Shown here: one piece after another, positions 163-1,084 of the stretch | Layout: every line of letters begins with the position of its first letter | Position numbering within the stretch: the first letter of the stretch is position 1 | NCBI GenBank assembly: GCA_000004985.1 | Contig: GG739572.1 | Strand: one strand, 5' to 3' | Source of the DNA: Naegleria gruberi | Lineage: Eukaryota | DNA: 1,084 nt | Notes under the pieces: generated by a model | The model's database searches: none | What the model was told of the DNA's origin: nothing | Seen by the model: the letters and a program-made list of their open reading frames with translations, nothing else | Made by a program: the position numbers and the translations under genes

Positions 163-1084
163 TTATGCATTTATAAATTCAAAGGTACAATCTACATTGG
201 CCAAATTAAAAGCAGGATATAATTCATTTTCATTTGTAATTTCAGAAAACGCAACTCCATAATCTTTATCATTAACTTTGAATGAAATATTTCCATTTCT
301 TAATTCACATTCAATAATTGAACCATCAACTATGCGACTATTAATATAGGATTTGCATGAATCACCTCTTTCTGAAAACAAGTAACCATTACCAGCACAA
401 TATAAATAATAACCACATGAATTGTAATTTGAACCATTAATATTAATAGTTTTAGGTGCAAAACCAATCATTAAATTGGCACAATTTGAAATTAATTTAA
501 TTTTAAATACGTTTGTTTTTGTTCCTAATATGGCTGCATCCCAGCCGTTAGCTATTGTTTTTCTTGCTCTTGTTGGTGTTTCTAATTGAATATTTGATGA
601 ACAATAATTTGAATCAAATTCCACTTTAGCTGTTACGTTATTAGTACTTGTAGTAGAAATTGAATATTTTGGTTTTAATATTTTCTTTCCATTTATAGGT
701 AATAATTCATAAATAGATGTTAATTGATAATAAACAATTTCTTCAATGAAATCATTCAAATCATGTTCATTTAAACTTGATAATTTAGATGAAATATCAA
801 TTCCTCTTAAATAATTTAAAATTAAATGAAATTGTTCATTGGGTCTATCAATAAAGAATGAATTATCATCTTCCTCTGCTGTTGGATTAAACAAGTCATT
901 AAAATATCCTGTAAAGAATGTATCTTTAACACTTGTAATAGTAGCCAAATTAGTAGCAAATATTTTACCACCAACATTAAGTTTTACAACTTGATTCTTT
1001 CCTAATTTAGTTTCAATAGTTGTGCTGGTAGATAATTTTGTTTCCAAATTAAATAATCTTTCTTCACGTTCTTTCAAATCATTT
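163..1084 (-). CDS. BTB/POZ (KCTD/K+-channel-tetramerisation type) + SPRY domain protein. It is 5'-partial because the N-terminus lies beyond the right edge of the window. The stop codon TAA is at 163..165 (reverse complement of tta).
   Basis: A 304-codon ORF with no in-frame stops, in an AT-rich sequence where stop codons are otherwise frequent. Residues ~30-123 (VVKLNVGGKIFATNLATI...FFIDRPNEQFHLILNYLRG...EIVYYQL) match the BTB_2/K_tetra consensus (LNVGG...FT...TL.......DE.G.YFIDRD...F..ILNYLR.G.L). Residues ~150-301 match the SPRY consensus: FKIKL...LMIGFA resembles yWEVe...vGva, DGSIIECELRNGNISFKVNDKDYGVAF resembles gDviGvllDl.nGtlsFykNGk.lGvAF, and LYPAFNL resembles lyPvvsl. The reading frame stays open through 1078..1083 (D, N) to the window edge. 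The codon the ORF track calls 'M' at 1075..1077 is TTG (Leu). Confidence 0.85.
   Translation of the reverse strand, partial: NDLKEREERLFNLETKLSTSTTIETKLGKNQVVKLNVGGKIFATNLATITSVKDTFFTGYFNDLFNPTAEEDDNSFFIDRPNEQFHLILNYLRGIDISSKLSSLNEHDLNDFIEEIVYYQLTSIYELLPINGKKILKPKYSISTTSTNNVTAKVEFDSNYCSSNIQLETPTRARKTIANGWDAAILGTKTNVFKIKLISNCANLMIGFAPKTININGSNYNSCGYYLYCAGNGYLFSERGDSCKSYINSRIVDGSIIECELRNGNISFKVNDKDYGVAFSEITNENELYPAFNLANVDCTFEFINA
175..630 (-). other. SPRY / B30.2-like beta-sandwich domain, within the CDS above
   Basis: Protein residues ~150-301. A PRY-like lead-in (KVEFDSNYCSSNIQLE...GWDAA) is followed by the core SPRY motifs IGFA, GYYLY.AGNGYLF, DGSIIECELRNGNISFKVNDKDYGVAF and LYPAFNL. Confidence 0.7.
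709..990 (-). other. BTB/POZ domain of the KCTD / T1 tetramerisation type, within the CDS above
   Basis: Protein residues ~30-123. The hallmark motifs VKLNVGG, FFIDRP(N)..F..ILNYLR and a C-terminal hydrophobic helix (DFIEEIVYYQL) are all present. Confidence 0.8.

Follow-up and report, generated by a model that had tools for sequence, protein, structure and literature searches.

A coiled-coil–BTB–SPRY gene of Naegleria gruberi encodes a candidate Cullin-3 substrate receptor

KCTD proteins bind Cullin-3 (CUL3) in 5:5 assemblies (PMC5664961), and not every member of the family does so (PMC5664961; PMC10348674). Human KCTD proteins are described as ending in small C-terminal domains or, in SHKBP1, in a WD40 domain; SPRY is not among these domains (PMC5664961). 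Here we analyse a 1,084-bp stretch of DNA (the window) that constitutes one entire small contig of the heterolobosean amoeba Naegleria gruberi and carries the 3′ part of a gene in which a KCTD-type BTB domain is joined to a C-terminal SPRY domain. We describe the encoded protein, its relatives and the residues with which it may contact CUL3, and weigh whether it acts as a substrate receptor for a Cullin-3–RING ubiquitin ligase.

The gene lies on the minus strand (nucleotides 163–1,083) and comprises 306 open codons followed by a TAA stop codon (163–165); its frame stays open from the window edge at nucleotide 1,083 down to that stop. At the composition of the window (approximately 25% GC, with a stop-codon probability of 0.092) a stop is expected every ~11 codons. 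A run of 306 open codons has a probability of ~1.5e-13, which rules out a chance open reading frame, and the remaining five frames contain 17–53 stops apiece. The gap-free alignment to paralogues leaves no intron within the part of the gene that is in the window; the family-conserved residues are all intact, and the stop is positioned as in the paralogues. The window holds the 3′ three-quarters of the gene, the 5′ end of which is beyond the window edge. Because the cut coincides with the end of the contig, we attribute the truncation to the assembly and not to the gene. Approximately 110 N-terminal residues, essentially a long helix, are beyond the window, as the gap-free alignment to the full-length paralogue P0002 (we refer to retrieved proteins by such numbers) starts at around its residue 112. 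The original prediction, made from the letters alone, had the same frame, but its 304-residue protein was a mechanical call from an internal TTG, the true N terminus being outside the window, and what it regarded as a self-contained single polypeptide is incomplete here.

The NCBI entry ‘predicted protein, partial [Naegleria gruberi]’ (P0001) matches the window translation at every residue (100% identity), which rules out a Dictyostelid origin. It had been suggested that Dictyostelid and giant-virus proteomes be searched for the same architecture; the DNA is that of N. gruberi, and viral relatives were not found. A single-protein search of IMG/VR viral contigs returned no relatives. Foldseek against the BFVD viral structures returned matches to SPRY only, in phage tail proteins and SPRY proteins, or poor ones to BTB only; none combined BTB with SPRY, so a giant-virus link has no support.

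The first residues in the window (residues 1–27; nucleotides 1,003–1,083) comprise the last part of the long N-terminal helix, a putative coiled coil with predicted helix at residues 2–17, and a short S/T-rich connector. A KCTD/T1-type BTB domain occupies residues 33–123 (nucleotides 715–987). It matches Pfam BTB_2 (PF02214) with E = 1e-16 and 61.5 bits against a cut-off of 21.4, over profile positions 1–88 of 94, and thus lies where a K_tetra-type BTB domain had been read from motifs (~30–123). In Pfam, with E values up to 10, neither PF00651 nor PF07707 matched the window protein. The BTB domain is without the N-terminal dimerisation extension and without a 3-box or BACK; a short helical linker (residues 124–151; nucleotides 631–714; predicted helices at 122–127 and 130–140) and the SPRY domain come directly after it. 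In the structural model, the SPRY/B30.2-like β-sandwich extends over residues 152–304 (nucleotides 172–630), and the Pfam match to SPRY (PF00622; E = 2.7e-7; 31.1 bits against a gathering cut-off of 26.3) covers residues 206–303 (nucleotides 175–468). The earlier placement of a SPRY domain at ~180–300 was therefore right as to domain, position and order; the structural domain is larger.

The C-terminal fold of the window protein is modelled with high confidence. In an AlphaFold2 model that draws on 12 members of the family, the predicted local distance difference test (pLDDT) score by block is mostly 80–95 over residues ~152–304, with a dip at ~231–250. The bent β-sandwich superposes on solved SPRY domains and not on PHR, galectin or lectin folds, and each of the top 50 PDB matches from Foldseek is a SPRY/B30.2 domain (including TRIM9, TRIM67, RanBP9/10, Ash2L, SPSB2 and GUSTAVUS; E values of 2e-10 to 2e-8; target TM-scores of 0.6–0.76). 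By these fold searches, the C-terminal half is not PHR, galectin or lectin in fold; PHR and galectin-like folds had been the alternatives named beforehand. Sequence profiles of the SPRY part recover RanBP9 (3e-11) and RanBP10 (7e-11), as well as SPRYD7, HERC1, SPSB1/2/4 and TRIM9/67. In the N-terminal half, the core fold of the BTB domain, a three-stranded sheet and five helices, superposes on solved KCTD BTB domains, and its best structural matches are KCTD7, KCTD10 and KCTD17, all of which are CUL3 binders.

P0002 (408 amino acids) supplies the missing part. Its model (mean pLDDT of 83) consists of a single continuous helix at residues 26–125 (block pLDDT of 81–95 over residues 31–120), then BTB, helical linker and SPRY, and Pfam found nothing besides BTB_2 and SPRY in the full-length protein. 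Because the window protein aligns without gaps to P0002, the predicted complete architecture of the window gene is coiled coil, T1-type BTB, helical linker and SPRY.

The residues with which KCTD proteins contact CUL3 provide a more-specific point of comparison. Cryo-electron microscopy and mutagenesis established that KCTD7 M76 (KCTD5 F69) and KCTD7 Y131 (KCTD5 F128) pack on Cul3 F54, Y58 and Y62 and that mutation impairs binding; CUL3-binding KCTDs have M or F at the first of these positions, and non-binders have K, R, T or L (PMC10348674). The pair R84/H85 in the α2–β3 loop of KCTD7 contributes a further salt bridge in some binders, and KCTD2, KCTD5 and KCTD17 retain only the hydrophobic residue of the pair, plus an acidic loop (PMC10348674). 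This loop is variable, and binding is not decided by any simple motif (Balasco et al., PMC10856315).

We aligned the window protein to KCTD5 (using a sequence identical to PDB 8u7z) and to BTB domains in the PDB. F56 (codon TTC; nucleotides 916–918, minus strand) aligns to KCTD5 F69 and KCTD7 M76, and Y118 (codon TAT; nucleotides 730–732, minus strand) aligns to KCTD7 Y131 and KCTD5 F128, the aromatic CUL3 contact of helix α4. Elsewhere, position 56 is F in KCTD5 and SHKBP1, R in KCTD15 and L in KCTD16. Across 76 BTB–SPRY proteins, 37 have F at the same position, 29 have Y and 4 have M (70 out of 76; 92%), and none has K or R; position 118 is always aromatic (Y in 39 and F in 37; 76 out of 76). 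In the α2–β3 loop, L64 and F65 align with the R/I pair of SHKBP1 and AEEDD comes next; the hydrophobic F65 and the acidic stretch resemble the KCTD2/5/17 type, and the Arg is absent. Judged from these alignments, F56 and Y118 are a binder-type signature, not proof. The original prediction had made its ligase-adaptor interpretation depend on residues of this kind, and at both positions the window protein has the binder type.

Identity to P0002, the closest N. gruberi paralogue, is 90% over the helix and 94% over the BTB domain, and 51% over SPRY; it drops sharply at residues 135–145, inside the linker, from 85–100% to 25–75%. The window SPRY is 43–58% identical to those of the other paralogues, and P0002 is no closer. 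Such a mosaic would fit gene conversion in the 5′ module, a swap of domains or a SPRY domain that has diverged quickly. Two relatives from ENA assemblies, P0011 and P0012, have the same coiled-coil–BTB_2 chassis with PHR in place of SPRY and are 67–69% identical to the window protein over the aligned coiled-coil–BTB part (around half of the query). We infer that the window gene belongs to a Naegleria/Willaertia paralogue family in which a constant coiled-coil–BTB chassis carries differing recognition domains (SPRY or PHR). The same BTB_2 subtype also occurs with a WD40 propeller in P0144 (517 amino acids; JGI), as in SHKBP1 and KCTD3, and with an MLLE domain, the C-terminal domain of PABP, in P0064 (285 amino acids; ENA). 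The SPRY subtype has partners of its own: 8 of the 10 ‘SPRY-only’ matches that we scanned have a PF00651 BTB domain ahead of it, usually with BACK, a ninth has a truncated BTB remnant only and one, from Willaertia, has a B-box. The BTB–BACK arrangement is the one known from KLHL- and BTBD-like CUL3 adaptors, SPRY taking the position of Kelch or PHR. By analogy, a constant docking or oligomerising module with interchangeable recognition domains has the look of substrate-receptor families. Another relative, P0018 (284 amino acids; NCBI/JGI), has the coiled coil and BTB_2, followed by a C-terminal region of ~140 residues without a Pfam match; it is also located on a contig of 1,084 bp, which is a coincidence.

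The BTB–SPRY pairing is a recurrent protist architecture that spans four supergroups and is already tagged automatically in databases. A HMMER scan over 1.84 billion cluster representatives returned 2,619 matches with E ≤ 1e-3, including 342 with E ≤ 1e-10, and we applied family-specific BTB and SPRY hidden Markov models (HMMs), built from an alignment of the family (A1), to 160 retrieved proteins. BTB followed by SPRY was present in 81 of these, counting P0015 of Naegleria fowleri; 46 had BTB only, many of them with 2–8 tandem BTB_2 domains, and 33 had SPRY only. The two-domain proteins come from Heterolobosea (N. gruberi, N. lovaniensis and Willaertia magna), Amoebozoa (Nematostelium, Thecamoeba and Vermamoeba), a choanoflagellate (Microstomoeca roanoka) and a stramenopile (Tribonema minus), in which P0054 (769 amino acids) consists of two complete BTB_2–SPRY units in tandem. 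Both domains are above the Pfam threshold in Willaertia, Nematostelium, Thecamoeba and Tribonema; the SPRY of Vermamoeba is just under the Pfam gathering score, and that of Microstomoeca was detected only with the family HMM. P0015 (299 amino acids) ends after the first ~38 residues of its SPRY match and is not a clear two-domain case. Proteins with 3–8 T1-type BTB_2 domains in tandem are common among the relatives (P0027, P0038, P0046, P0055, P0058, P0061 and others), and P0027 (953 amino acids) has eight.

To our knowledge, no human KCTD protein carries a SPRY domain. The original prediction described the fusion as unusual; the C termini on record for human KCTDs do not include SPRY, but the fusion cannot be called rare, given its presence in around half of the retrieved relatives. 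Literature searches on BTB–SPRY, and on Naegleria together with BTB/SPRY or Cul3, returned no paper that characterises the architecture; one table lists another N. gruberi protein, D2VKV5, as BTB(PF00651)–SPRY–LYR (PMC4381221).

We consider it most likely, with odds modestly in favour, that the protein serves a Cullin-3–RING ubiquitin ligase as substrate receptor. Its BTB domain would homo-oligomerise into tetramers or pentamers, as in KCTD proteins, probably with help from the N-terminal coiled coil. An aromatic patch to which F56, F65 and Y118 belong would dock, across BTB–BTB interfaces, against helices H2 and H5 in the N-terminal domain of CUL3. The SPRY domains, each carried by a helical linker, would bind their substrate, a peptide or a protein, in a multivalent manner, and the captured substrate would be presented to the RBX1-bound E2 for ubiquitylation. 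We favour this reading because the F56 and Y118 positions are of the binder type in the window protein and in the family, because the best structural BTB matches are CUL3 binders and because the same SPRY subtype sits behind BTB(-BACK) modules, a hallmark of CUL3 adaptors. It is favoured further because the BTB_2 subtype is joined to varying recognition domains (PHR, WD40 and MLLE) and because the nearest solved SPRY domains (RanBP9/10 of CTLH, HERC1, SPSB and TRIM) are parts of E3 ligases. The polypeptide has a separate putative substrate-recognition domain, the C-terminal SPRY, and the nine cullin-family genes of the Naegleria pangenome (PMC9928731) also support a ligase role.

Several points weigh against a ligase role. 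The window model is of low confidence over the BTB domain (pLDDT of 50–80), although the model of the paralogue P0002 is good in this respect. The position of KCTD7 R84 is L64 in the window protein and H in most paralogues, and it is R in 17 of 76 family members. In sequence, the BTB domain is approximately equally near to the non-binders KCTD15 and KCTD16 and to the binders SHKBP1 and KCTD7. Several human KCTDs of the same fold are not ligase adaptors. Finally, the literature on Naegleria gives only the number of cullin-family genes, not a CUL3 orthologue (PMC9928731).

Some of these points lead to the strongest rival, an oligomeric scaffold that acts independently of any ligase, in which the BTB domain and the coiled coil would multimerise and SPRY would bind a partner so as to sequester, cluster or regulate it, with CUL3 uninvolved. 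Precedents exist in KCTD1 and KCTD15, which are AP-2 repressors, and in KCTD8, KCTD12 and KCTD16, which are auxiliary subunits of the GABA-B receptor and Gβγ. The inability of some KCTD proteins to bind CUL3 (PMC5664961; PMC10348674), the presence of KCTD15 and KCTD16 among the closest solved sequence relatives and the missing α2–β3 loop Arg all fit such a scaffold. However, where non-binders have K, R, T or L, the window protein has F, and 92% of the family have F, Y or M, with K or R never found; the recurrence of the same SPRY subtype with BTB–BACK modules typical of CUL3 adaptors also counts against a scaffold. On balance, we regard a ligase-independent role as possible and the less probable of the two. 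A different use of the same fold, the T1 domain of a voltage-gated potassium channel, would account for the weak PDB matches to the T1 domains of Kv1, Kv3 and Kv4, but the KCTD matches are far stronger, and the only elements after the BTB domain are the helical linker and a soluble SPRY domain, with no transmembrane S1–S6; this candidate was rejected and we give it next to no weight.

Two further explanations concern what is outside the window. The gene could be a non-functional fragment, a pseudogene or an assembly leftover, that is, a truncated duplicate on a 1-kb contig: the contig is small, the gene is cut at its 5′ end and the match to P0002 is a mosaic of a nearly identical BTB domain and a much less similar SPRY domain. 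Against this, the long open frame at low GC content is improbable by chance, the conserved residues are intact, the stop is placed as in the paralogues and the truncation is where the contig ends, so we consider a dead fragment improbable by a wide margin. Alternatively, the missing N terminus could contain a RING or B-box, which would make the protein a self-contained, TRIM-like E3 in which the BTB domain only oligomerises. A coiled coil followed by a C-terminal SPRY does resemble TRIM proteins, and a TRIM-like heterolobosean protein exists: P0090 of Willaertia magna (517 amino acids) has an N-terminal B-box zinc finger and the same SPRY subtype at its C terminus. However, the full-length paralogues P0002, P0003 and P0007 align through the window N terminus and have only helix upstream, and Pfam detected neither RING nor B-box in P0002; a TRIM-like E3 is therefore very unlikely, even more so than a dead fragment.

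Beyond the substrate-receptor reading is a broader and highly speculative possibility, which we think improbable: that the coiled-coil–BTB chassis is a modular, lineage-expanded receptor platform of free-living amoebae, a CUL3-dependent analogue of TRIM proteins. Its members would be ancient cell-autonomous immune sensors, in which the SPRY domain diversifies rapidly so as to recognise proteins from intracellular bacteria or giant viruses. Recognition domains (SPRY and PHR) would be swapped by recombination at the linker, and the drop in identity to P0002 between the BTB and SPRY domains, at residues 135–145, would be the footprint of swapping or of diversifying selection. Rapidly diversifying recognition has parallels in TRIM5 and in the MATH-BTB families of nematodes and plants.

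The plus strand of the window contains a short open frame at the left edge. Frame 2 is open from that edge for 38 codons (nucleotides 2–121; NLIGSSDSSSGSPSTTREVTQDNGNNVIIAYQSFVFRS) and closes with a double stop, TAA TAA, at 116–121. Only 44 nt separate it from the BTB–SPRY stop codon, and the chance of such openness is ~0.025. A convergent neighbouring gene might end here.

At present, the window gene has a sound domain annotation as a hypothetical protein, with an unsurprising proposed mechanism, and its mosaic, modular family is a sensible starting point for further work. The pairing of two well-known modules is uncharacterised but widespread, and it follows known adaptor logic. Its spread over at least four eukaryotic supergroups suggests an architecture that is either old or repeatedly invented. 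If CUL3 binding is true, these proteins would form an uncharacterised class of Cullin-3–RING ligase (CRL3) receptors that combine KCTD-type oligomeric docking with SPRY recognition, and the range of cullin-docking modules paired with SPRY would extend beyond the SOCS box, the F-box and RING/TRIM. Such a class would also provide an entry point for studying protein turnover in Naegleria; the pathogen N. fowleri is a member of this genus and has the related protein P0015.

Comparison with known systems places the protein between several families. It is similar in plan to the human KCTD receptors of CRL3 (KCTD5, KCTD7, KCTD10/13 and SHKBP1/KCTD3), which likewise have a T1-type BTB domain without the N-terminal extension and without a 3-box or BACK, have the conserved CUL3-contact aromatics equivalent to F56 and Y118 (F69 and F128 in KCTD5) and place the BTB domain first and the recognition domain at the C terminus. 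SHKBP1 is comparable in having a large recognition domain, WD40, in place of the small KCTD C-terminal domain. Within this family of 25 human members, the best PDB sequence match has E = 2e-8 (SHKBP1) and the identity to KCTD5 is 29%; the C-terminal domain of the window protein is SPRY, unlike those of the KCTDs. Because identity is ~30% and the C-terminal domain differs, the window protein lies outside any human KCTD clade.

The BTB–SPRY order recurs in protist proteins with PF00651 BTB, BACK and SPRY (P0043, P0107 and P0111) and in D2VKV5, in which the same SPRY subtype is C-terminal to the BTB module. The family SPRY HMM matches proteins of the BTB–BACK–SPRY group with E values of 1e-31 to 1e-51; these proteins differ in that their BTB domain is dimeric and bears a 3-box or BACK, and is not of the T1/KCTD type. 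P0011 and P0012 share the chassis of the window protein and differ in the domain that it carries; PHR follows a BTB domain in animals also, in BTBD1/2/3/6, which are BTB–BACK–PHR proteins with a BTB domain of the PF00651 type.

Known ligases with SPRY domains resemble the protein from the other side. RanBP9 and RanBP10, of the CTLH/GID E3 scaffold, have the closest solved SPRY domains by profile and are among the top fold matches (identity of ~18–22%), but RanBP9 has LisH and CTLH domains and no BTB. TRIM proteins (RING–B-box–coiled coil–PRY/SPRY) are similar in combining a coiled coil with a C-terminal SPRY, and TRIM67, TRIM9 and TRIM25 are among the best fold matches. They differ in their RING and B-box, which Pfam found in neither the window protein nor P0002; in the window protein, CUL3–RBX1 would supply any RING activity in trans. 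SPSB1–4 and GUSTAVUS (SPRY–SOCS box, with CUL5) likewise join SPRY to a small cullin-docking module, and the SPRY domains of SPSBs are significant profile and fold matches. The SOCS box acts through Elongin BC, whereas the BTB domain of the window protein would dock CUL3 directly, and the order of the domains is reversed. FBXO45 is an F-box–SPRY receptor that acts through SKP1. Compared with SPSB proteins and FBXO45, the oligomeric BTB domain of the N. gruberi protein would imply multivalency.

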